DNA of 64,000 nt from Anaeromyxobacteraceae bacterium. Lineage in GTDB: Bacteria; Myxococcota; Myxococcia; Myxococcales; Anaeromyxobacteraceae. Below, one piece after another: positions 5,078 through 49,258 of the stretch. Both the position numbers and the translations under genes were made by a program. The notes beneath the pieces were generated by a model. It had not been told where the DNA came from, did not search any database, and was given only the letters and a program-made list of their open reading frames with translations. Within the stretch, counting starts at the first letter, position 1, and the number at the start of each line of letters is the position of its first letter. The stretch covers positions 410,033-474,032 of the forward strand of contig JAULAX010000018.1 in assembly GCA_032654565.1 (NCBI GenBank), in the 5' to 3' direction.

Positions 5078-5821
5078 TCAGTCCCTTCGCCGTCCGCCCA
5101 GCAGCTGCAGCACCGCCAGGAACAGGTTGATGAAGTCGAGGTAGAGCGAGAGCGCCCCGCCGATGGGGGCGCCGGCCGTGGTGGCGCCGCCGGCCCGGGC
5201 GTAGGCCCGGAGCTTCTGGGTGTCGTAGGCGGTCAGGCCGGTGAAGACCACCACCGCGGCGCAGGAGATGACGAACTGCATCGCCGAGCTCTGCAAGAAC
5301 ATGTTGACCAGGCCGGCGATGACCACCCCGAAGAGCCCCATCACCAGGAACGAGCTCCAGCTGGTCAGGTCGCGGCTGGTCACGGTGCCGTAGACGCTCA
5401 TGGCGGCGAAGGTGCCGGCGGTGATGCCGAAGGCCAGCGCCACCGAGTCGCCGGTGTAGACCAGCAGCAGCACCGAGAAGGTCACCCCGGTGAGCGCCGA
5501 GTAGAGCAGGAAGAGCCCGCCGGCGGCGGCGCGAGAGAGGCGCGGCAGCATCGACGAGAGGGCGATGACCACGCCGAACTGGGCGATCATCAGGCCGTAG
5601 AAGACCCAGCGGTTCCGGACCACCACCTCGAGCACCGCCGGGGTGGCGGCGACGGTGAAGGCGACGCCGGCGGTGACCAGCAGCCCCAGCGCCATCCAGC
5701 GGTAGACGGCGCCGATGAAGGCGCGCTCGGCGCTGACCGCGCCGACGGCGTAGGGGGGCGGCTGGCCGGTGACGGTGATGGGGTAGGGCGAGCGGGCCTG
5801 CGGCTTGGGTTCGAAGGGCAT
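5078..5821 (-). CDS. Bax inhibitor-1/YccA family membrane protein
   Basis: 247 aa with 7 TM helices. N-terminal ..ERAFIGAVYRWMALGLLVTAG.. and C-terminal ..GALSLYLDFINLFLAVLQLLG.. are typical of the BI-1/YccA family. Confidence 0.85.
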   Translation of the reverse strand: MPFEPKPQARSPYPITVTGQPPPYAVGAVSAERAFIGAVYRWMALGLLVTAGVAFTVAATPAVLEVVVRNRWVFYGLMIAQFGVVIALSSMLPRLSRAAAGGLFLLYSALTGVTFSVLLLVYTGDSVALAFGITAGTFAAMSVYGTVTSRDLTSWSSFLVMGLFGVVIAGLVNMFLQSSAMQFVISCAAVVVFTGLTAYDTQKLRAYARAGGATTAGAPIGGALSLYLDFINLFLAVLQLLGGRRRD

Positions 5822-5848
5822 GGCGATCTCTCTAACACGCGGGGGGTG

Positions 5849-6193
5849 TCATTTCTTCCGGAAGAGGGCCTCCAGGGCGTCGCGGGGGTCCTCCTCGCGG
5901 GCGGCGGGGGCCTCGCCGAAGAGGGCCCGCAGGGCGTCCTTGGCCTGGCGCGACGACTGCCGCCGGCGTGGGGCGCCGTCGCCGAGCTGGAACAGGTCGC
6001 AGGGGTTGGAGCCGAGCTTGTCGACGATCCGGTCGGCGTGGGGCTCGCGGCACTCGTTGCCGGCGGTCTCGTCGTGGTGCCGGCAGTTGATGCAGCGGTG
6101 CAGGTCGGCGTCGCACTCGGGGCAGGTGGTGCGCCGGCCGATGGGGCCGTCGAAGACCAGGGTGGCGCCGCAGCCGTAGCAGGAGGTGGCCAT
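5849..6193 (-). CDS. Small zinc-ribbon protein
   Basis: MATSCYGCGATL..CPECDADLHRCINCRHHD..: CxxC pairs followed by an acidic/basic tail. Start moved to the ATG at 6193, preceded by GGAGG. Confidence 0.6.
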   Translation of the reverse strand: MATSCYGCGATLVFDGPIGRRTTCPECDADLHRCINCRHHDETAGNECREPHADRIVDKLGSNPCDLFQLGDGAPRRRQSSRQAKDALRALFGEAPAAREEDPRDALEALFRKK

Positions 6194-8410: not shown

Positions 8411-10525
8411 ATGGAGGGAGCGCCCGTGACGCGAGCCGACCTGCTGCCCGGCAAGCCGTTCCCGCTCGGCGCCACGCCGGGACCGGACGGGGTCAACTTC
8501 AGCGTCTGGTCTCGCGACGCCACCGGGATCGAGCTGCTGCTCTTCGACGCCGCCGACAGCGCCCGCCCCTCGCGGATCATCAAGCTGCAGCGCGACCAGC
8601 ACCACACCTACCACTACTGGCACGTGCTGGTGGCCGGCCTGGGCCCTGGGCAGCACTACGGCTGGCGGGCCCAGGGGCCCTTCCGACCCGACGCCGGGCT
8701 CCGCTTCGACGGCGAGAAGCTGCTGCTCGATCCCTACGCCCGGGCCATCGCCGTGCCCCCCGGCTACGACCGGGAGGCGGCCACCCGGCGTGGCGACAAC
8801 GCCGGGGTGGCCATGAAGTCGGTGGTGGCCGACCTCTCCCGCTTCGACTGGGAGGGGGACCAGCGGCTCCGCCACCCCTTCTCCCGCACCGCCATCTACG
8901 AGCTGCACGTCCGCGGCTTCACCCGCCACCCCAGCTCGGGCGTGGCCGAGCCGCGGCGCGGCACCTACGCCGGCCTGGTCGAGAAGATCCCCTACCTCAA
9001 GTCCCTCGGCGTCACCGCGGTGGAGCTCCTGCCGGTCTTCCAGTACGACCCCCAGGACGCGCCGCCCGGGCGCCGCAACGCCTGGGGCTACTCGCCGGTC
9101 TCCTTCTTCGCGCTGCACACCGCCTACGCCGCCGCCGGCGAGCCGCTGGCGGCGCTCGACGAGTTCCGCGAGATGGTCAAGGCGCTCCACCGGGCCGGGC
9201 TCGAGGTGATCCTCGACGTGGTCTACAACCACACCGCCGAGTCCGACGAGCGCGGGCCCACCCTGGGCTTCCGGGGGCTCGACAACCGGGCCTACTACCT
9301 GCTGGAGCAGGACTGGTCCCGGTACGCCAACTACACCGGCTGCGGCAACACCCTCAAGGCCCACCACCCGGTGGTGCGCCGGCTCATCCTCGACAGCCTG
9401 CGCCACTGGGTCTCCGAGATGCACGTCGACGGGTTCCGCTTCGACCTGGCCTCGGTGCTGGCCCGCGACGAGGCCGGCCACCCGCAGAGCAGCCCGCCCA
9501 TCGTCTGGGAGATCGAGAGCGACCCGCTGCTGTGCGGCACCAAGCTGATCGCCGAGGCCTGGGACGCCGCCGGGCTCTACCAGGTGGGGCAGTGGGTGGG
9601 CGACTCCTGGAAGGAGTGGAACGGTCGCTTCCGCGACGACGTCCGCGGCTTCGTGCGCGGCGAGCCGGGGATGGTGGGCCGGCTCGCCAACCGCATCTTC
9701 GCCAGCCCCGACCTCTACGCCGGCGACCAGCTGGAGCCGGAGCAGAGCGTCAACTTCGTCACCTGCCACGACGGCTTCACGCTCAACGACCTGGTCAGCT
9801 ACGACCGCAAGGCCAACCTGGCCAACGGCGAGGAGAACCGCGACGGGGCCGACGACAACCGCTCCTGGAACTGCGGCGTCGAGGGGCCCAGCGACGATCC
9901 GGCCGTGGAGGCGCTTCGCTCGCGCCAGGTGCGCAACCTGCTGGCCCTGACCCTGCTCTCCAGCGGCGTGCCCATGATCACCATGGGCGACGAGGCGCGC
10001 CGCACCCAGCTCGGCAACAACAACGCCTGGTGCCACGACGGCCCGCTCACCTGGCTGGACTGGGACCTGGTGGAGCGGCAGGCCGGCCTGCGCAGCTTCG
10101 TGCGGCGCCTGCTCGACCTGCGCTTCGCCTTCGATCCCACCGCGGCCAGCGACGGCGTCCCGCTCCGCGAGTTCCTCACCCGGGCCCGCATCGAGTGGCA
10201 CGGGGTCCGGCTCGACGCCCCGGACTGGGGCCCGGAGTCGCGCAGCCTGGCGGTCTGCTTCACGGCGCGCGGCCGCTCCGGGCGGATCTACATGGCCTTC
10301 AACGCCTTCTGGGAGCCGCTGGAGTTCGAGCTGCCCACGGCGCCGCGGAGCTGGCGGCGGCTGGTGGACACGGCGCGGCCGTCACCTGACGACGCCGTCG
10401 GCTGGGCCGACAACGCCACGGTGGCGGGGTCGAGCTACCGGGTGGAGGCCCGCTCCCTGGTCATGCTGGGGACCCACGGGGCCCGGCGGCGTGACGCCGG
10501 CGGGCCGGCGACCCGGGGCCGCTAG
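8411..10525 (+). CDS. glgX: Glycogen debranching enzyme GlgX
   Basis: 704 aa. N-terminal ..PLGATPGPDGVNFSVWSRDATGIELLLFD.. GH13 motifs present: DVVYNHT, GFRFDLAS, EAWD, FVTCHDGFTLNDL. Confidence 0.92.
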   Translation: MEGAPVTRADLLPGKPFPLGATPGPDGVNFSVWSRDATGIELLLFDAADSARPSRIIKLQRDQHHTYHYWHVLVAGLGPGQHYGWRAQGPFRPDAGLRFDGEKLLLDPYARAIAVPPGYDREAATRRGDNAGVAMKSVVADLSRFDWEGDQRLRHPFSRTAIYELHVRGFTRHPSSGVAEPRRGTYAGLVEKIPYLKSLGVTAVELLPVFQYDPQDAPPGRRNAWGYSPVSFFALHTAYAAAGEPLAALDEFREMVKALHRAGLEVILDVVYNHTAESDERGPTLGFRGLDNRAYYLLEQDWSRYANYTGCGNTLKAHHPVVRRLILDSLRHWVSEMHVDGFRFDLASVLARDEAGHPQSSPPIVWEIESDPLLCGTKLIAEAWDAAGLYQVGQWVGDSWKEWNGRFRDDVRGFVRGEPGMVGRLANRIFASPDLYAGDQLEPEQSVNFVTCHDGFTLNDLVSYDRKANLANGEENRDGADDNRSWNCGVEGPSDDPAVEALRSRQVRNLLALTLLSSGVPMITMGDEARRTQLGNNNAWCHDGPLTWLDWDLVERQAGLRSFVRRLLDLRFAFDPTAASDGVPLREFLTRARIEWHGVRLDAPDWGPESRSLAVCFTARGRSGRIYMAFNAFWEPLEFELPTAPRSWRRLVDTARPSPDDAVGWADNATVAGSSYRVEARSLVMLGTHGARRRDAGGPATRGR

Positions 10526-11985
10526 AAGCTGCCGAGGAACTCGTCGTTGGTCTCGAACTCGTTGAGCTTCTTGAGGAGCCGCTCCATGGCCTCGACCGGC
10601 TTGAGCGAGGCCAGGGCGCCGCGCAGCCGCCGCACCTTCTCGATCTCCTTCGGGGAGAAGAGCTTCTCCTCCTTGCGGGTGCCGGAGGCGCCGATGTCGA
10701 TGGCCGGGAAGATGCGCCGCTCCGAGAGCTGCCGGGAGAGCACCACCTCCATGTTTCCGGTGCCCTTGAACTCCTCGAAGATCACCTCGTCCATGCGCGA
10801 GCCGGTGTCGATGAGGGCGGTGGCGATGATGGTGAGCGAGCCGCCCTCCTCGGCCTTGCGGGCGGCGCCGAAGAGCCGCTTGGGCCGCTCCAGCGCGCGC
10901 GAGTCGACGCCGCCGGTGAGGGTGCGGCCGGAGGACTCGACCTCCTTGTTGTAGGCGCGGGCCAGCCGGGTGATGGAGTCGAGCAGGATGACCACGTCCT
11001 TGCCCCCCTCCACCAGCCGCCGGGCGCGCTCCATGGCCATCTCGGCGGCGTGGATGTGCTCCTCGGCCGGCCGGTCGTTGGAGGAGCCGATCACCTCGCC
11101 CTTGATGTTGCGGCGCATGTCGGTGAGCTCCTCGGGCCGCTCGTCGACCAGCAGCACCGTCAGGTGCACGTCGGGCCGGTTGGCGGTGATGGCCTGGGCG
11201 ATCCGCTGCAGCATGATGGTCTTGCCGGCCTTGGGCGGCGAGGTGATCAGGCCGCGGGCCCCGAGGCCGATGGGCGAGATGAGGTCGAGCACCCGCCCCA
11301 CCAGCTCGTCGGCGCGGGTCTCCATCACCAGCCGCTCGGTGGGATCGGTGGCGGTCAGGTTGGGGAAGTGGGTGCGGCGCAGCACCGCCATGGGGTCGGC
11401 GCCCTCGAGGGTGTCGACCTTGGTGAGCACCCGCTTCATGTTGCGGGTGGCCGCCTGGCCCTTCACCAGCAGCCCGGCCTGGAGGTGCATCCGGTCGATG
11501 AGCCAGCGGGGCACCTCGACGTCGAACGGCTGGGGGTTGTAGCTCTTCTTGGGATCGCGCAGCGCGCCGTTCCCCTTGCCCTCGAACTCGAGGACGCCCT
11601 CGACCTCCTCGGTCACCTCGGGCTGGCCGTTGCCCGGGCCGCCCTGCGGCCCCTGGCTCCCCTGCGGCTGGCCGCCAGGGGGCGCGCCCTGCGGGGCCTG
11701 TCCACCCGGCTGCCCGCCGGGCTGGCCGCCCGGGCCGTTGCCGCCGGGGCCGTTGCCGTTGGGGCTGCCCGGAGGTCCACCGCGGCCGCGGCGACCGCGG
11801 CGACGGCGGCGGCGGCGCCCCTGGCCGGGCTGGCCGGGTTGTCCACCCTGGCCGGGCTGTCCGCCACCTTCGTTGGGACCACCGTCACCGTCGCCTCCGC
11901 CGCCTCCGGACGCGGGAGTCTGCGCCGGCGCGGATGGAGTGGTGGCGGGCTGCCCCTGGGGGCCGTTCTCGTGATTCTCGCTCAT
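10522..11985 (-). CDS. rho: Transcription termination factor Rho with a Gly/Pro/Gln/Arg-rich N-terminal extension
   Basis: OB-fold region and RecA core are present (..LDLISPIGLGARGLITSPPKAGKTIMLQ..VLLVDERPEE..). The first ~125 aa are low complexity (GGQPGQ repeats, RRRRRRRGRRGRGG). Confidence 0.93.
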   Translation of the reverse strand: MSENHENGPQGQPATTPSAPAQTPASGGGGGDGDGGPNEGGGQPGQGGQPGQPGQGRRRRRRRGRRGRGGPPGSPNGNGPGGNGPGGQPGGQPGGQAPQGAPPGGQPQGSQGPQGGPGNGQPEVTEEVEGVLEFEGKGNGALRDPKKSYNPQPFDVEVPRWLIDRMHLQAGLLVKGQAATRNMKRVLTKVDTLEGADPMAVLRRTHFPNLTATDPTERLVMETRADELVGRVLDLISPIGLGARGLITSPPKAGKTIMLQRIAQAITANRPDVHLTVLLVDERPEELTDMRRNIKGEVIGSSNDRPAEEHIHAAEMAMERARRLVEGGKDVVILLDSITRLARAYNKEVESSGRTLTGGVDSRALERPKRLFGAARKAEEGGSLTIIATALIDTGSRMDEVIFEEFKGTGNMEVVLSRQLSERRIFPAIDIGASGTRKEEKLFSPKEIEKVRRLRGALASLKPVEAMERLLKKLNEFETNDEFLGSF

Positions 11986-15654: not shown

Positions 15655-16143
15655 ATGGCACCCATGACGCCCGTCCCCGCATCGGCCTCCCACGTCGAGA
15701 TGACCCAGCTGGTGATGCCGAGCCACGCCAACTCACACGGCACCGCCTTCGGCGGCACGGTGATGGCCTGGACCGACCTGGCCGCCGGCATGGCGGCCAT
15801 GCGCCACGCCCGGCTCCCGGTGGTCACCGCCTCCATCGACCAGCTGGTCTTCCGCTCGCCGGTCCGCATCGGCCAGATCGCCCTGGTGCGGGCCCAGGTC
15901 AACGCCGTCTTCGCCACCTCCATGGAGGTGGGAGTGGTGGTGCTGACCGAGGAGCCGCTCACCGGGGAGCAGCACCTCTGCTGCGAGGCCTTCCTGACGT
16001 TCGTGGCGCTGGGGCCCGACCAGCACCCCCGGCCGGTGGCGCCGCTGCGGGCCGAGACCGAGCTGGAGCAGCAGCGTCAGCGCGAGGCGGGCACGCGGCG
16101 GGCCGCCCGGCTCGAGCTGCGCGAGACGCTGAAGGGGAGGTAG
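15655..16143 (+). CDS. Acyl-CoA thioesterase (hotdog fold, YciA-like)
   Basis: ..MTQLVMPSHANSHGTAFGGTVMAWTD..ASIDQLVFRSPVRIGQ.. The upstream part of track ORF 14728..16143 is antisense to thyX, so I used the ATG at 15655. Confidence 0.85.
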   Translation: MAPMTPVPASASHVEMTQLVMPSHANSHGTAFGGTVMAWTDLAAGMAAMRHARLPVVTASIDQLVFRSPVRIGQIALVRAQVNAVFATSMEVGVVVLTEEPLTGEQHLCCEAFLTFVALGPDQHPRPVAPLRAETELEQQRQREAGTRRAARLELRETLKGR

Positions 16144-16729: not shown

Positions 16730-17218
16730 TCAGCCCTTGCCGCGCAGGCGCAAGCAGAGCCCGCCCGAGTCGTAGTAGGTGAAGCGGACCGAGCCGGCCA
16801 GGAGGCGCATGCCGGGCTGGAGCGCCACGGCGTCGGGGCCGAGCTGGGCGTCCTCGACGGCGGAGCCGTTGGTCGAGCCGGCGTCCCGGACGGACCAGCC
16901 GAGCGGCTCGGGCTGGAGCAGCAGGTGGATGCGGGAGAGGGTGGCGTCGTCGACGACGATGTCGTTGTCGGAGGCGCGCCCGAGGGAGAGGTAGGTCCGC
17001 TGGGTGGGGGGCTCGAGCGCGATGGCGAGCGACTCACCGGCGCCATGGGGGACGCTGCCGAGGAGGCTGTCCTGGGCGAGGGTGTCCTTGGTCTGGTAGG
17101 TGGGGCGCCACGGCCCGGCCTCCCAGACCAGCCAGTCCTCCGGCCAGGCCTTGGTGAAGGCGTCGAGGGTCTGTCCCTGGGAGGCCTTGGCCAGCCAGGT
17201 CAGCAGGTATCCACGCAA
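16730..17218 (-). CDS. FHA-domain protein
   Basis: C-terminal FHA signature ..LSLGRASDNDIVVDDATLSRIHLLL...DAGSTNGSAV.. Confidence 0.75.
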   Translation of the reverse strand: MRGYLLTWLAKASQGQTLDAFTKAWPEDWLVWEAGPWRPTYQTKDTLAQDSLLGSVPHGAGESLAIALEPPTQRTYLSLGRASDNDIVVDDATLSRIHLLLQPEPLGWSVRDAGSTNGSAVEDAQLGPDAVALQPGMRLLAGSVRFTYYDSGGLCLRLRGKG

Positions 17219-17327
17219 GGAAGTCCTCCGCCCGGGATGACAGCATAGAGAAGCGGCGGCTGTCGACTGCTACTTGCAGATCATTTCACCGCCTCCACGC
17301 CTCGGCCTGGCAGGCAGGAGGACTGAA

Positions 17328-17429
17328 GACCGCTTCCCCCGTCCCCCCCTCCCGTCCCAGAGACCGCTTCCCCCGTCCCCCCCTCCCGTCCCAGAGACCG
17401 CTTCCCCCGTCCCCCCCTCCCGTCCCAGA
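17328..17429 (-). repeat. 3 x 34-bp perfect tandem repeat, G-rich on the minus strand
   Basis: gaccgcttcccccgtccccccctcccgtcccaga occurs three times head to tail (17328-17361, 17362-17395, 17396-17429). It is immediately followed by gtagttcgg. Confidence 0.95.
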
Positions 17430-18698
17430 GTAGTTCGGCGGACCAAGGTCCGCGGGACGGCCGGGGTGGGGTGGGCGGCGGTGAGGCAAGTGGCCGGAAT
17501 CGCGAGCGGAGGCATTGGCACGGGTCCTGCGATGTAGCCCCAGGCCATGACCGCGCCACGCCAGGTGCTCCCGGGCACCACCTACCTCATCACCCGCCGG
17601 TGCCTGAACCGGCAGTTCTTCCTGCGCCCCTCCAAGGCCACCAACCAGCTCGTCGGCTTCCTCCTCGCCGTCGCCGCCGAGCGCTTCCACGTCGAGGTCC
17701 ACGCCTTCTGCGTGATGTCCAACCACCTCCACCTCGTGGTCACCGACCCCGACGCCTGCCTCCCCGCCTTCGGCAGGTTCCTCGACTCGCTCATCGGCCG
17801 CTCCATGAACGCCATGCTGGGGCGCCAGGAGTACTTCTGGGGGCCGCCCACCTTCAGCGCCGTCGCCCTGCAGTCCCCGGCCGACGTCCTCGACAAGGTC
17901 GCCTACACCCTCGCCAACCCGGTCAAGGCCGGCCTGGTCCGCCGCGGACGGCTCTGGCCGGGGCTCTGGTCCGCCCCGGACCAGATGGGCGCCGCGCCCC
18001 TCGAGTTCGCCAGGCCCTCCTCCTTCTTCCGGCGGGCCGGCCAGGGGTCCCTTCCCGACCGGGCCTCCCTGCGGCTCGTCATCCCCACGGGCTTCGACTC
18101 TCCGGCCCACTTCCGCCGCTCCCTCCACGCCGCCCTCGCCGACCGGGAGCAAGCCGCCTCTGCCCACCTCGCCTCGCGCGGGCGTGGCTTCCTCGGCGTC
18201 CAGCGCGTGCTCACACAGAGCCCCTTCGACAGGCCTCCTACCAGGGAGCCCCTCGGAGGGCTCAACCCGCGCGTCGCCAGCCACGACACCTGGCGTCGCG
18301 TCCAGGCCCTCCGCGCCCTCGGCTCCTTCATCCAGGACTACCGCCGCGCCTTCGACCGCTGGCGCGCCGGCTCCTCCGGCGTCCTCTTCCCCGCCGGCAC
18401 CTATCTCATGCGCGTCCTCCACCGCGCCCCCTGCCTCGCCCCTGGCTGACTCACCACCCCGTCAGCTTCCCCCACTCAGCCTCGTCACCACGTCAGTCGT
18501 CTCCGGCCGCGGTCGGGGACTGCCTGGGGACGGCTCTCCAGCCTGAGTCCAGGGGGTCCTCCCGCTTCGACGCCTCGGTTCAGGCGTCAGGTGGACCCTT
18601 CTGAGCGTGTTCGGGCGACGGTTCACTACCTGGCGACCCAAGTTGACCCAGCCGTACCCCGCGAGCGACTGGCGAGGTCTCAACTACTCCCGGACCGG
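17419..18698 (+). mobile_element. RAYT-like unit: Y1/HUH transposase gene bracketed by inverted GTAG-headed ~20-bp repeats
   Basis: Left repeat 17419-17438 is cccgtcccagagtagttcgg. The rc of the right repeat 18679-18698 is ccggtccgggagtagttgag. They are 16/20 identical and in inverted orientation. Confidence 0.6.
17547..18449 (+). CDS. IS200/IS605-type Y1 (HUH) transposase-like protein, REP-associated tyrosine transposase (RAYT)-like
   Basis: HUH motif ..FCVMSNHLHLVVTD.. and tyrosine motif ..KVAYTLANPVKAGLV.. 300 aa. Confidence 0.75.
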   Translation: MTAPRQVLPGTTYLITRRCLNRQFFLRPSKATNQLVGFLLAVAAERFHVEVHAFCVMSNHLHLVVTDPDACLPAFGRFLDSLIGRSMNAMLGRQEYFWGPPTFSAVALQSPADVLDKVAYTLANPVKAGLVRRGRLWPGLWSAPDQMGAAPLEFARPSSFFRRAGQGSLPDRASLRLVIPTGFDSPAHFRRSLHAALADREQAASAHLASRGRGFLGVQRVLTQSPFDRPPTREPLGGLNPRVASHDTWRRVQALRALGSFIQDYRRAFDRWRAGSSGVLFPAGTYLMRVLHRAPCLAPG

Positions 18699-18705
18699 TG
18701 CGGCT

Positions 18706-19428
18706 TCATCCACCCAGGTACGCCGCCTGGACCCGCGGGTCCTCGACCAGCTCCCTCGCCGCACCCTGGAGGGCCAGGCGTCCATGCTCGAGGACGTAGG
18801 CATAACTACTCTCGGACAGGGCCAGCCGGGCGTTCTGTTCGACCAGCAGGATGGTCGTCCCCTCCCGGTGGATCTCCCGGATGGTCTCGAAGATCTGCTG
18901 CACCAGGATCGGCGACAGCCCCATGGAGGGCTCATCGAGCAACATGACTCTGGGACGGGCCAGCAGGGCCCGGGCGAACGCCAGCATCTGCTGCTGGCCG
19001 CCCGACAGCGACCCCGCCAGCTGCCGCCGCCGCTCCCCGAGGATGGGGAACCGCCGGTACTGGTCCTCGATGGCCGCCGCCAGCCCGCCCGCCGGCTGGC
19101 GCAGCTCACCCGCCAGCCGCAAGTTCTCCTCGATGGTCATCCGCCCCAGGATGGCGCGCCCCTCGGGCACCAGCGTCAGGCCCGCCGCCACCGTCCGGTG
19201 CGCCGGGAAGCCGGTCACGTCGACGCCGCCGAGCCGCACCCGCCCGGCCCGCGGCCGGACCAGCCCGGCCAGCGCCGACAGGATCGAGGTCTTGCCGGCC
19301 CCGTTCGGCCCGATCAGGGTGACGATCTCCCCCTCGCCGACCCGCAGCGACACGCCGCGCACCGCCTCGACCTGCCCGTAGGCGACGTGCAGGTCCTCCA
19401 CCTCCAGCAGCGGCGCCGCGGTGCTCAT
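18706..19428 (-). CDS. livF: Branched-chain amino acid ABC transporter, ATP-binding protein LivF
   Basis: Walker A GPNGAGKTS, signature LSGGQQQM, Walker B MLLDEPS. Ends ..DPRVQAAYLGG, as is typical of LivF. Confidence 0.9.
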   Translation of the reverse strand: MSTAAPLLEVEDLHVAYGQVEAVRGVSLRVGEGEIVTLIGPNGAGKTSILSALAGLVRPRAGRVRLGGVDVTGFPAHRTVAAGLTLVPEGRAILGRMTIEENLRLAGELRQPAGGLAAAIEDQYRRFPILGERRRQLAGSLSGGQQQMLAFARALLARPRVMLLDEPSMGLSPILVQQIFETIREIHREGTTILLVEQNARLALSESSYAYVLEHGRLALQGAARELVEDPRVQAAYLGG

Positions 19429-23251: not shown

Positions 23252-23359
23252 GAACTACTCTGGGAGGGAGGGCTAGGACGGAGCGCCGAACTACTCCGGG
23301 ACGGGTGGCGAGAGGTTCGGCGTGAACTACTCTGGGTCAGGAATAAGCCCCGGAACTTC
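23252..23359 (+). repeat. 3 x 36-bp degenerate tandem repeat, each unit headed by GAACTACTCYGGG
   Basis: gaactactc occurs at 23252, 23288 and 23324 (exact 36-bp period). Lies upstream of the liv operon and downstream of the nitroreductase gene. Confidence 0.85.
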
Positions 23360-34675: not shown

Positions 34676-34696
34676 GGTCGGCTCCGGCGTGCGTTG

Positions 34697-34797
34697 AAGG
34701 ACTCTGGGACGGGAAGCGGAAGGACTCTGGGACGGGAAGCGGGGACGGGAAGCGAATTACTCTGGGACGGGAATCGAACGGGGACGGGAATCGAACG
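34697..34797 (+). repeat. Composite tandem repeats built on CTCTGGGACGGGAAGCG / GGGGACGGGAATCGAAC
   Basis: aggactctgggacgggaagcgg occurs twice. It is followed by ggggacgggaagcga, attactctgggacgggaatcgaac and ggggacgggaatcgaac. Confidence 0.85.
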
Positions 34798-34947
34798 GCT
34801 CTCTCCAAGGTGAACGCGCCGGGCCGGGGAACGATCTGGAGGACCGCGCCGCGGCCGGTGGTCCGCCGCCCGGCCGGTGGGCGGGACGCCCCAGGTTCCT
34901 GATCACGGCCGGTTGGGCGCGGCACCGGGGCTGCATCCCCCCGCCGC

Positions 34948-35968: not shown

Positions 35969-36043
35969 GGCACCGTCGCCAAGTGGTAAGGCAAGGGTCT
36001 GCAAAACCCTTATTCCCCGGTTCGAATCCGGGCGGTGCCTCCA
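35969..36043 (+). tRNA. tRNA-Cys (anticodon GCA)
   Basis: GGCACCG/CGGTGCC acceptor stem. Anticodon loop CT-GCA-AA flanked by stem GGGTC../..ACCC. T-arm GGTTCGAATCC. Discriminator U followed by an encoded CCA. Confidence 0.9.
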
Positions 36044-37804: not shown

Positions 37805-37846
37805 GGTCGGAGACAGGAGCATGCGCCACCCGGGCCGGTCAATCTG

Positions 37847-37937
37847 GACCGCGAGGACGGGACCTCGACGACGGGACCGCGAGGACGGGACTGCGAGGAC
37901 GGGACTGCGAGGACGGGACCGCGAGGACGGGACTGGG
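37847..37937 (+). repeat. 14-bp minisatellite, about 6.5 copies (GACYGCGAGGACGG)
   Basis: Units begin at 37847, 37861, 37875, 37889, 37903 and 37917, with a partial unit at 37931. The unit length is not a multiple of 3. Confidence 0.9.
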
Positions 37938-38062: not shown

Positions 38063-38214
38063 CCCCGGCCGGCGAGTGACCCGGAGGGCGATCGACCCTG
38101 CGGACTGAAACCCCGGCCGGCGAGTGACCCGGAGGGCGATCGACCCTGCGGACTGAAACCCCGGCCGGCGAGTGACCCGGAGGGCGGTCGACCCTGCGGA
38201 CTGGAGCCCCGGCC
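38063..38214 (+). repeat. 3 x 48-bp tandem repeat plus a partial fourth copy
   Basis: ccccggccggcgagtgacccggagggcgatcgaccctgcggactgaaa occurs at 38063, 38111 and 38159 (the third copy has 3 substitutions). The next 8 bp start the unit again. The array ends 54 bp upstream of the molybdoenzyme ATG. Confidence 0.92.
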
Positions 38215-38267
38215 AAGACCGGAAACGGCGGGTGGAAACGGCGCGGAGGCGCGGCTAGATTGCCGGC

Positions 38268-48956: not shown

Positions 48957-49234
48957 ACCGAGAGTTCGTTCTGACGTCAGAACCGACTCAGCGTCCGCGT
49001 CGGCCGGTTCAGTCAACTGAACCGGGAATGACCCATCCCGGTCGGGGCCTCGGTGCCGGACATCAGCGGACTGAGAGTCCGGTTCGTGCGCACGAACTCG
49101 TACTGACCCGCCCCGCACGGAGTCCCTCCAACGCAACTTCGGACGTCAGAACTCGCGAAAGAGGGGCCAGGTTCGGGGCCCTCGGTCCTGACCGAGAGTA
49201 GTTCGAGGGCGGAAGGAGCGTCCGCGCGGCGGAC
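48957..49234. repeat. Cluster of perfect palindromes and hairpins (BIME-like) in the ccoS / ydjM-like intergenic region
   Basis: GTTCTGACGTCAGAAC (48968-48983). CCGGTTCAG-tcaa-CTGAACCGG (49004-49025). CCGGGA-n8-TCCCGG (49022-49041). CGGACT-gag-AGTCCG (49067-49081). GTTCGTGCGCACGAAC (49082-49097). accgagagtagttcg (49191-49205). GTCCGC-gcg-GCGGAC (49220-49234). Confidence 0.85.
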
Positions 49235-49258
49235 CCCGCCAGCGAGCGTGCCGCGCCG

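Follow-up and report, generated by a model that had tools for sequence, protein, structure and literature searches.

A 1.28-kb unit of Anaeromyxobacteraceae with a Y1 HUH transposase gene and 17-nt inverted ends as a probable autonomous IS-like element

Genes resembling those of REP-associated tyrosine transposases (RAYTs; REP, repetitive extragenic palindrome) that have flanking inverted repeats at a fixed distance were described by Di Nocera et al. in 2013 (PMC3733652), who named such loci TIRtrons and their enzymes TIRYTs, and some of the TIRtron repeats belong to families that occur singly, as dimers or in clusters (PMC3733652). Most TIRYTs were assigned by Quentin et al. in 2018 (PMC6006769) to subclass 2.1, which comprises long proteins without REPs whose C-terminal helix-turn-helix (HTH)-like domains match the Bac_DnaA_C, HTH_23 and HTH_28 profiles. 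The same study gives Y---NP as the signature of class 2, TnpAREP-like proteins (PMC6006769). The published TIRtron repeats mostly share GGGGWSAS. The RAYTs of groups 2 and 3, which are associated with REPINs (REP doublets forming hairpins), are single-copy genes that do not duplicate themselves (Bertels et al. 2017, PMC5581495). Here we focused on a 64,000-nt stretch of an Anaeromyxobacteraceae bacterium (assembly GCA_032654565.1, contig JAULAX010000018.1; G+C 73.4%; hereafter, the window), in which a gene for a Y1 HUH transposase is enclosed by inverted repeats at 17419-18698. All positions without a prefix count within the window.

We consider it likely that 17419-18698 is one copy of an autonomous, insertion sequence (IS)-like element of ~1.28 kb with 17-nt inverted ends, which has spread through the Anaeromyxobacteraceae and related Myxococcota. 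The arrangement fits the TIRtron/TIRYT description better than that of REP/RAYT. As in TIRtrons, terminal inverted repeats take the place of REPs around a RAYT-like Y1 gene and keep a near-constant distance from the coding sequence (CDS), the repeats are also dispersed as singles, dimers and clusters, and the protein, which carries a C-terminal extension, exceeds a classical RAYT in length. The nearest stretch to GGGGWSAS, however, is (C/T)(T/C)GGWCRG (e.g., CTGGGACG), a partial match; the best local matches (TGGGACGG, TGGGTCAG and TCGGTCGG) agree at 5-7 of the 8 positions. The motifs of subclass 2.1 are NHVH or NH[YF]H, W[EQ], and YIELNP or Y[IV]HLNP, whereas those found here are NHLH, FW[AG] and Y[VT]LANP, and unlike in that subclass the C-terminal domain of this family is without a Pfam match or a fold in the Protein Data Bank (PDB). 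Myxobacteria are not mentioned in the two TIRtron papers (PMC3733652, PMC6006769), and neither reports whole-unit duplication at 97-100% identity, persistence at orthologous sites or a sigma-54-type promoter. What appears to be new at this locus is a conserved sigma-54-type promoter, copies at orthologous sites in three genomes with a remnant in a fourth, and within-genome homogenisation. The parts of the unit are the following.

17419 to 18698, + strand: the whole putative mobile unit, 1280 bp, with left end, regulatory region, Y1 gene, 3' spacer and right end.
17419 to 17435, + strand: left terminal inverted repeat, CCCGTCCCAGAGTAGTT, at a fixed distance to the ATG across relatives.
17438 to 17460, + strand: block next to the left end, GCGGACC-aa-GGTCCGC followed by GCGGGACGG, i.e., a palindrome and a third half-site.
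17516 to 17530, + strand: candidate sigma-54 (-24/-12) promoter, TGGCACGGGTCCTGC, 17 nt 5' of the ATG.
17547 to 18449, + strand: gene for the 300-aa Y1 HUH enzyme, containing VMSNHLHLVVTD and VAYTLANPVKAGLV.
18450 to 18681, + strand: 3' non-coding spacer, of which the length is kept across the family and the sequence is not.
18682 to 18698, + strand: right terminal inverted repeat, AACTACTCCCGGACCGG; a livF-like gene has its stop codon (18706) 7 bp away.

An initial reading of the letters by a model (hereafter, the first-pass annotation) had proposed a REP/RAYT arrangement for this locus. The open reading frame (ORF) at 17547-18449, its HUH and tyrosine motifs, and the letters of both repeat copies that it gave are all present in the sequence.

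The limits of the unit were drawn from related loci (with L-numbers), which were retrieved via protein homology. In L001 and L002, two contigs from one sample, a 1276-bp block is 100% identical in unrelated gene contexts, and its limits lie exactly at the end motifs. Blocks ending at the motifs were also found in L004 and L006 (1278 bp, 98.8% identical) and in L016 and L027 (1269 bp, 96.7% identical). In the L016/L027 block, GAGAGTAA replaces AGAGTAGT at both ends, which therefore change in concert. Because the identical blocks elsewhere stop at the same motifs, 17419-18698 was taken as exactly one mobile unit, and its right end has the same position as that in the syntenic locus L004. No target-site duplication was detected at any junction inspected, in line with the first-pass annotation, which had seen none in the window.

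The family consensus of the end motif is CCYGWCCSAGAGTAGTT. Across 76 instances, the conserved stretch is 17 nt long and stops sharply at the outer G/C, with no conservation past the outer edge. In the window, L001-L006, L008, L018 and L020, 119-120 bp separate the left motif from the ATG, and the inverted right motif (family form AACTACTCTSGGWCGGG) is mostly located 220-280 bp past the stop codon (+357 in L008); end motifs at fixed gene distances were seen in about a dozen loci of 47-70% protein identity. The 3' spacer measures ~220-280 bp in most of the family loci and its sequence is unconserved across the family. It holds no second conserved ORF, as tblastx returned low-complexity matches only.

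The predicted enzyme has the catalytic residues H60-L-H62 (the HUH motif), Y120 and N124-P125 (Y120-T-L-A-N124-P125). In an alignment of 33 full-length homologues, H60, Y120 and P125 are invariant, and H62 and N124 are conserved in at least 90%. A comparison with the Y1_Tnp profile, which the first-pass annotation had suggested, gave a mixed outcome. The match to Pfam PF01797 (Y1_Tnp) stayed below the gathering score (17.7 bits vs the threshold of 23, E 0.0039, residues 37-75 only), though some homologues have a precomputed PF01797 match, while the RAYT/TnpAREP type was borne out by the REP_Tyr_transpos model, the E. coli TnpAREP structure (4ER8) and the Y---NP signature. The REP_Tyr_transpos model (NCBIfam NF047646) aligned protein residues 5-138 to 4-144 of its 146 positions with an E value of 1.2e-15, at a score below the cut-off (57.6 vs 80 bits), and the IS200 model (NCBIfam NF033573) gave an E value of 0.08 (13.2 vs 55 bits). 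The sole phmmer match in the PDB was 4ER8 (residues 6-158 on 7-154). The AlphaFold2 (AF2) model of the protein has a pLDDT of 85, and its best Foldseek match was 4ER8_A (E 1.8e-7, root-mean-square deviation (rmsd) 2.5 A over 142 columns, template modelling (TM) score 0.70 on the target). The top 30 Foldseek matches were all Y1 transposases (E 1.8e-7 to 2.9e-4), with the TnpA of ISDra2, IS608 and IS200 ranking after TnpAREP. The N-terminal ~160 residues are thus predicted to have a TnpAREP-type fold. Residues ~160-300 form a C-terminal extension that is conserved family-wide, for which there was no Pfam match (including none to HTH or Bac_DnaA_C profiles), and a separate AF2 model of it (pLDDT 75) had no PDB fold match better than E 6.6.

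Homologues of the protein are numerous, with 2648 of full length (~300 aa) among the 90% clusters, and 6123 matches at E ≤ 1e-3 and 685 at E ≤ 1e-30 among the 50%-identity clusters. Between copies from different genomes, the ratio of nonsynonymous to synonymous substitutions (dN/dS) is 0.25-0.56. As a separate observation, C19, C55 and C296 are invariant and H292 is nearly so. These residues are divided between the catalytic domain and the extreme C-terminus, and could form a metal site linking the tail to the core.

The first-pass annotation had called the gene single-copy, and had reasoned that many identical copies with classical IS ends would make it an ordinary IS. The relatives were found to hold 2-4 copies that are 97-100% identical, including both ends. 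In their multiplicity, these copies count against a single-copy RAYT by the standard that the first-pass annotation had set. Four copies were counted in the metagenome-assembled genome (MAG) MFD02979.bin.1.4, of which three are 99% identical and the fourth is divergent. A second MAG holds two, and in a third the copies are cut by contig ends. As for the source genome, the protein cluster that includes the window protein has four variants, which are 97-99% identical and lie on up to six NCBI contigs. Two NCBI contigs carry the window protein (P0125), from which P0001 differs at 3 residues; P0126 and P0127 are on contigs of 226 kb and 98 kb. Several 97-99% identical copies are therefore probably present in the source genome, as judged from these variants. 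Many of the metagenomic contigs with the Y1 gene are only 1-2 kb long and end at the element.

The end motif was also profiled without the gene. With up to 3 mismatches to GAACTACTCYGGGACGG, 10 matches were found in the window vs 0.32 expected, a number that none of 100 shuffles attained, and 9 of the 10 are non-coding, in four places per 64 kb. Beyond the two ends, the intergenic sites are three (23252-23340 with 3 copies, 34696-34770 with 3 copies, and 49188), which agrees with the recurrence between genes noted by the first-pass annotation. The arrays and solo motifs of the window are listed here.

17327 to 17430, no strand assigned: perfect tandem array, 34 bp x 3.1, adjoining the left end; the end of its unit is the outer 12 nt of the repeat (CCCGTCCCAGAG).
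23252 to 23340, + strand: intergenic direct array of three solo end motifs at intervals of 36 bp, the spacers between them being unrelated.
34696 to 34802, + strand: three end motifs (two with GAAGGA for GAACTA) and reiterated GGGACGGGAAKCG units, intergenic, 5' of a minus-strand gene.
49188 to 49240, - strand: solo left-end-type motif (CTGACCGAGAGTAGTTC on the + strand), then a GCGGA...GTCCGC...GCGGACC block that resembles the left-end interior, intergenic.

The 34-bp array beside the left end is absent from the orthologous site of L004, and the intergenic counterpart of the 23252 array in L004 is ~150 bp shorter (15671-15707 vs 15680-15866 of the window subsequence) and free of the motif. 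The minus strand of the 34-bp array, GGGACGGGAGGGGGGGACGGGGG, carries G runs, and a quadruplex could form there. Reiterated end motifs were seen just outside full elements in the window, L013 (five times), L016, L020 and L027. The right flank of L013, a 54%-identical family member, has at least 5 tandem copies of CGAACTACGGTCGGGTCCTCT, an expanded variant of the end motif, at ~10370-10540.

In the related loci, solo copies occur at ~1 place per 10-15 kb. A relaxed motif had 76 matches in 450 kb of these loci vs 8-24 in Markov controls, and extra flanking positions are conserved in the matches. Among 46 metagenomic stretches with the exact 17-mer, 37 have no Y1 gene, and the 17-mer is often within ~100-500 bp of a contig end. 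Short inverted pairs of 115-120 bp were found in L008 (7843-7960) and L018 (3816-3937), with perfect inverted ends of 21 and 19 bp and single-strand folds of -55 and -42 kcal/mol, respectively, and L043 and L076 have a ~200-bp element with doubled ends. The GCGGACC block is missing from the L008 and L018 pairs and kept in those of L043 and L076. The inverted pairs (~120-200 bp) look MITE-like (miniature inverted-repeat transposable element) or REPIN-like; the direct arrays have a spacing of 23-36 bp. The one coding match in the window, a close copy of the end motif (TAACTACTCTCGGACAG), is within the livF-like CDS (…SESSY…) at 18803-18819. It is ~105 bp away from the right end, on the outer side, and the syntenic L004 retains it (~11248-11264). 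It could be a chance match, or a look-alike that attracted the insertion.

Inside the left end, the palindrome GCGGACC-aa-GGTCCGC at 17438-17453 is present as first annotated. The pattern GCGGACC-N2-4-GGTCCGC-N3-5-GCGGAC was found in the left ends of most family loci. Its stems always read GCGGACC/GGTCCGC, so covariation is nil and pairing is neither supported nor refuted. Folding of the inner regions gave a mean z of -1.45 for left ends and -0.12 for right ends; the annotated pairing of repeat and hairpin therefore holds at the left and has no counterpart at the right.

Sigma-54 (RpoN) promoters have GG and GC elements at -24 and -12 with the spacing TGGCACG-N4-TTGCW. TGGCACGNNNNYTGC is matched exactly just once in the window, by TGGCACGGGTCCTGC at 17516-17530, and in ~18 of 22 family loci, whose remaining upstream DNA is unconserved, yGGCACG-N4-yTGC precedes the start codon by 28-32 bp. 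The pattern is at the same place in L001, L003, L004, L007-L016, L018, L020 and L027. The Y1 gene is thus probably transcribed from a sigma-54-dependent promoter, whose position would imply a very short leader, and which suggests that a host activator may control the transposase. The activator sites of sigma-54 promoters are usually upstream, at a distance comparable to the ~55-80 bp that separate the GCGGACC block from the candidate promoter. As the palindrome is at the left end only and upstream of a conserved promoter pattern, it may be a regulatory site; it is possibly an activator site, a transposase-binding hairpin, or both.

The window and L004 are syntenic over 20 kb, with flanks 84-92% identical and the element at the same place and 76% identical. 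Two further pairs of orthologous sites (L001/L005 and L002/L006) were found in two other genomes, so that at least 3 orthologous sites hold a copy in two or three genomes, with 8-20% divergence of the flanks. The synonymous divergence (dS) between the window and L004 is 0.56 for the Y1 gene and 0.49 for livF. Because these values resemble each other, the insertion at the livF/FHA site appears to be about as old as the split of the two genomes. The nonsynonymous divergence (dN) is 0.23 in the Y1 gene vs 0.07 in the flanking genes (~3x). In L032, in which the FHA protein is 81% identical, livF is next to FHA with a decayed copy between them (5720-5850, minus strand). This remnant has CCCGTCCCAG fused to GCC-ATG and the first ~30 Y1 codons, followed by a deletion to the livF stop codon, and the fusion joins the outer half of the left end at a CCCAG microhomology.

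Copies are 99-100% identical within a genome vs 71-78% between genomes at orthologous sites. L005 is a mosaic, in which the 5' 1060 bp are 99.4% identical to L004 and the 3' 210 bp are unrelated to L004, L006 and the ortholog L001. This mosaic argues for gene conversion rather than fresh transposition, and the copies within a genome are therefore probably kept alike by conversion. The G+C content of the element is 72.0%, compared with 73.0% for the host, and is the same as that of its own flanks.

These data also bear on the alternative that survives best, namely that the family is a long-resident, host-integrated and multi-copy one, which is selected at fixed sites, driven by a sigma-54 activator and homogenised by conversion, as an intermediate between an IS and a REPIN/RAYT system, with the short repeats as its products or substrates. 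The occupation of at least three orthologous sites with a remnant in a fourth genome, a Y1 dS equal to that of the flanking genes with a dN/dS of ~0.4, the host-like G+C content, the conserved sigma-54-type promoter and the L005 mosaic are all in keeping with it. They are, however, compatible with an autonomous element as well, and the two explanations are not exclusive of each other. The decay of the copy in one lineage argues against strong selection at that site, and it also counts against this alternative that the protein evolves fast and has no known host function. We regard this explanation as unlikely. A related proposal is that the family represents the missing intermediate from a selfish Y1 IS to a domesticated REPIN/RAYT, being multi-copy, resident at unchanged chromosomal sites from before several Anaeromyxobacteraceae species diverged, silent behind a sigma-54 promoter that requires a host activator, homogenised in each genome by gene conversion, and seeding REP-like arrays and REPIN-like pairs of its 17-nt end. 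This is put forward tentatively, and we lean against it.

A classical REP/RAYT locus (or REPtron), with a single-copy domesticated RAYT, dispersed GTAG-headed palindromic REPs and an immobile gene, appears improbable. The likeness is real in several respects. The catalytic fold and the class-2 Y---NP are those of the E. coli TnpAREP (4ER8), which ranks first among the matches in both sequence and fold, inverted copies of a short repeat that recurs between genes lie on either side of the gene, the top strand of the left end reads GTAG-N4-hairpin, and the locus has been inherited vertically at its orthologous site. The short inverted pairs, like REPINs, can fold into long hairpins. This kind of system also includes the Pseudomonas RAYTs (Nunvar 2010; Bertels & Rainey 2011). 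REPs, however, are inverted palindromes of 20-40 nt with a 5' GTAG head, whereas the end repeat here is inverted but 17 nt long and non-palindromic. GTAG is internal to it, after 12 conserved outer bases, and is replaced by GTAA, GTAT, GTCC, GTTC, GAAG or GAAC in other family members, the conserved core being CCSAGAG. Many of the solo copies are in direct arrays and not in inverted doublets, and the hairpin is missing at the right end and in the L008 and L018 pairs. The unit is multi-copy: in relatives, and probably also in the source genome, the gene and both repeats are duplicated together (97-100% identity). The protein is twice the size of a RAYT, and its NCBIfam score is under the family cut-off. 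The locus is hence not a classical REP/RAYT, because the unit is multi-copy and its repeat is non-palindromic without a conserved GTAG. From the arrangement first annotated, the enzyme type and the bracketing by a dispersed inverted motif were retained, and the single copy, the GTAG head and the REP nature of the repeats were given up.

An ordinary tnpA-only insertion sequence of the IS200/IS605 type is very improbable. As in IS608 and ISDra2, a Y1 HUH chemistry can be inferred here, no target-site duplication is seen, multiple near-identical copies exist, and many 1-2-kb metagenomic contigs end at the element, as repeats would. Those elements, however, have unlike subterminal hairpins on one strand, a Y---Q motif, a protein of ~130-150 aa and often tnpB, whereas the present one has inverted ends with an unstructured right end, Y---NP, 300 aa and no tnpB; the IS200 model matched poorly (NF033573 E 0.08), and the IS608 and ISDra2 TnpA were weaker fold matches than TnpAREP. 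Least credible is that the motif is a binding site of a host protein or a slippage-prone minisatellite that flanks the gene by coincidence, as the chance-level pair in the window, the slippage-like perfect tandem units and a relaxed-motif background of ~15 per 450 kb might suggest, but identical blocks begin and end exactly at the motif, the spacing of motif and gene is kept across the family, both ends change together, and perfect inverted pairs of 19-21 bp exist.

For the autonomous element, a mechanism may be proposed as follows. The enzyme would act on single-stranded DNA, in which the inverted ends of a short element would pair into a stem, or each end would be read singly. Y120 would cut at the outer edge of the repeat, form a 5'-phosphotyrosine link and rejoin the strand, leaving no duplication. 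In this way the full element would be moved, and so would the short derivatives, in trans. Arrays with unrelated spacers would arise by insertion or rejoining beside existing ends, and slippage would yield the perfect tandem units. Transcription would depend on sigma-54, with the palindrome possibly serving as an activator site, a transposase-binding hairpin, or both.

Several points weigh against this interpretation. The 20-mers at 17419-17438 and 18679-18698 (reverse complement) are identical at 15 of 20 positions, rather than the 16 of 20 first annotated, and at 14 of 17 in the core, and shuffling of both intergenic stretches gave an inverted 20-mer pair as good or better in 28 of 60 shuffles. 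The inverted repeat of the window alone is thus at chance level, and its reality follows from the same motif at the same gene distances in relatives and from the exact block limits elsewhere. Convincing inverted ends were not found in the distant homologues L007, L017, L019 and L021 (35-58% identity), and folding of the right-end inner regions revealed no hairpin. No cleavage, excision or insertion event was observed. A true empty site was not found either; L032, the closest genome without the gene at the livF/FHA site, holds the deletion remnant and farther genomes differ in synteny there, and the shared sites could reflect a strong site preference instead of age. The sigma-54-type promoter is a sequence match, and the copy number of the source genome was taken from protein cluster tables only. 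The characterised Y1 transposases read other substrates, IS608 and ISDra2 recognising unlike subterminal hairpins and TnpAREP recognising GTAG with a hairpin, and we know of no tested precedent for Y1 chemistry on terminal inverted repeats.

The Y1 gene lies between an FHA-domain gene (16730-17218, minus strand) and the livF-like gene for an ABC (ATP-binding cassette) ATPase (18706-19428, minus strand). No tnpB-like gene was found near it, in agreement with the first-pass annotation. An Rfam scan of the window gave no RNA match apart from tRNA-Cys, and the tRNA-Cys (GCA) gene at 35969-36043 is the sole Rfam or ARAGORN match there. Two more intergenic tandem arrays, at 37846-37933 (14 bp x 6.3, 91% identity) and 38063-38214 (48 bp x 3.2, 97%), are located 5' of a gene starting near 38259, and their sequences are unrelated to the end motif.

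In our literature search this family did not come up, nor did any paper that connects sigma-54 with an IS200-type transposase or REPs with Anaeromyxobacter; the 14 papers naming RAYT and myxobacteria together do so in passing only, to judge from the titles and abstracts of 10 of them. RAYT-like genes with inverted repeats were catalogued in 2013 with no later study known to us, and how a Y1 enzyme handles inverted ends is a question of chemistry for which this family offers a test case, given that its 17-nt ends are sharp, that some copies look active and are 100% identical, and that it has short non-autonomous derivatives and thousands of homologues. If the intermediate reading were true, the enzyme of this family would be the first among Y1 transposases for which action on terminal inverted repeats is shown. 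The elements and their solo ends also break metagenomic assemblies of Anaeromyxobacteraceae. The sites shared across species and the near-identity within genomes bear on how families of repeats persist, a question that has come from the work on REPINs and RAYTs.

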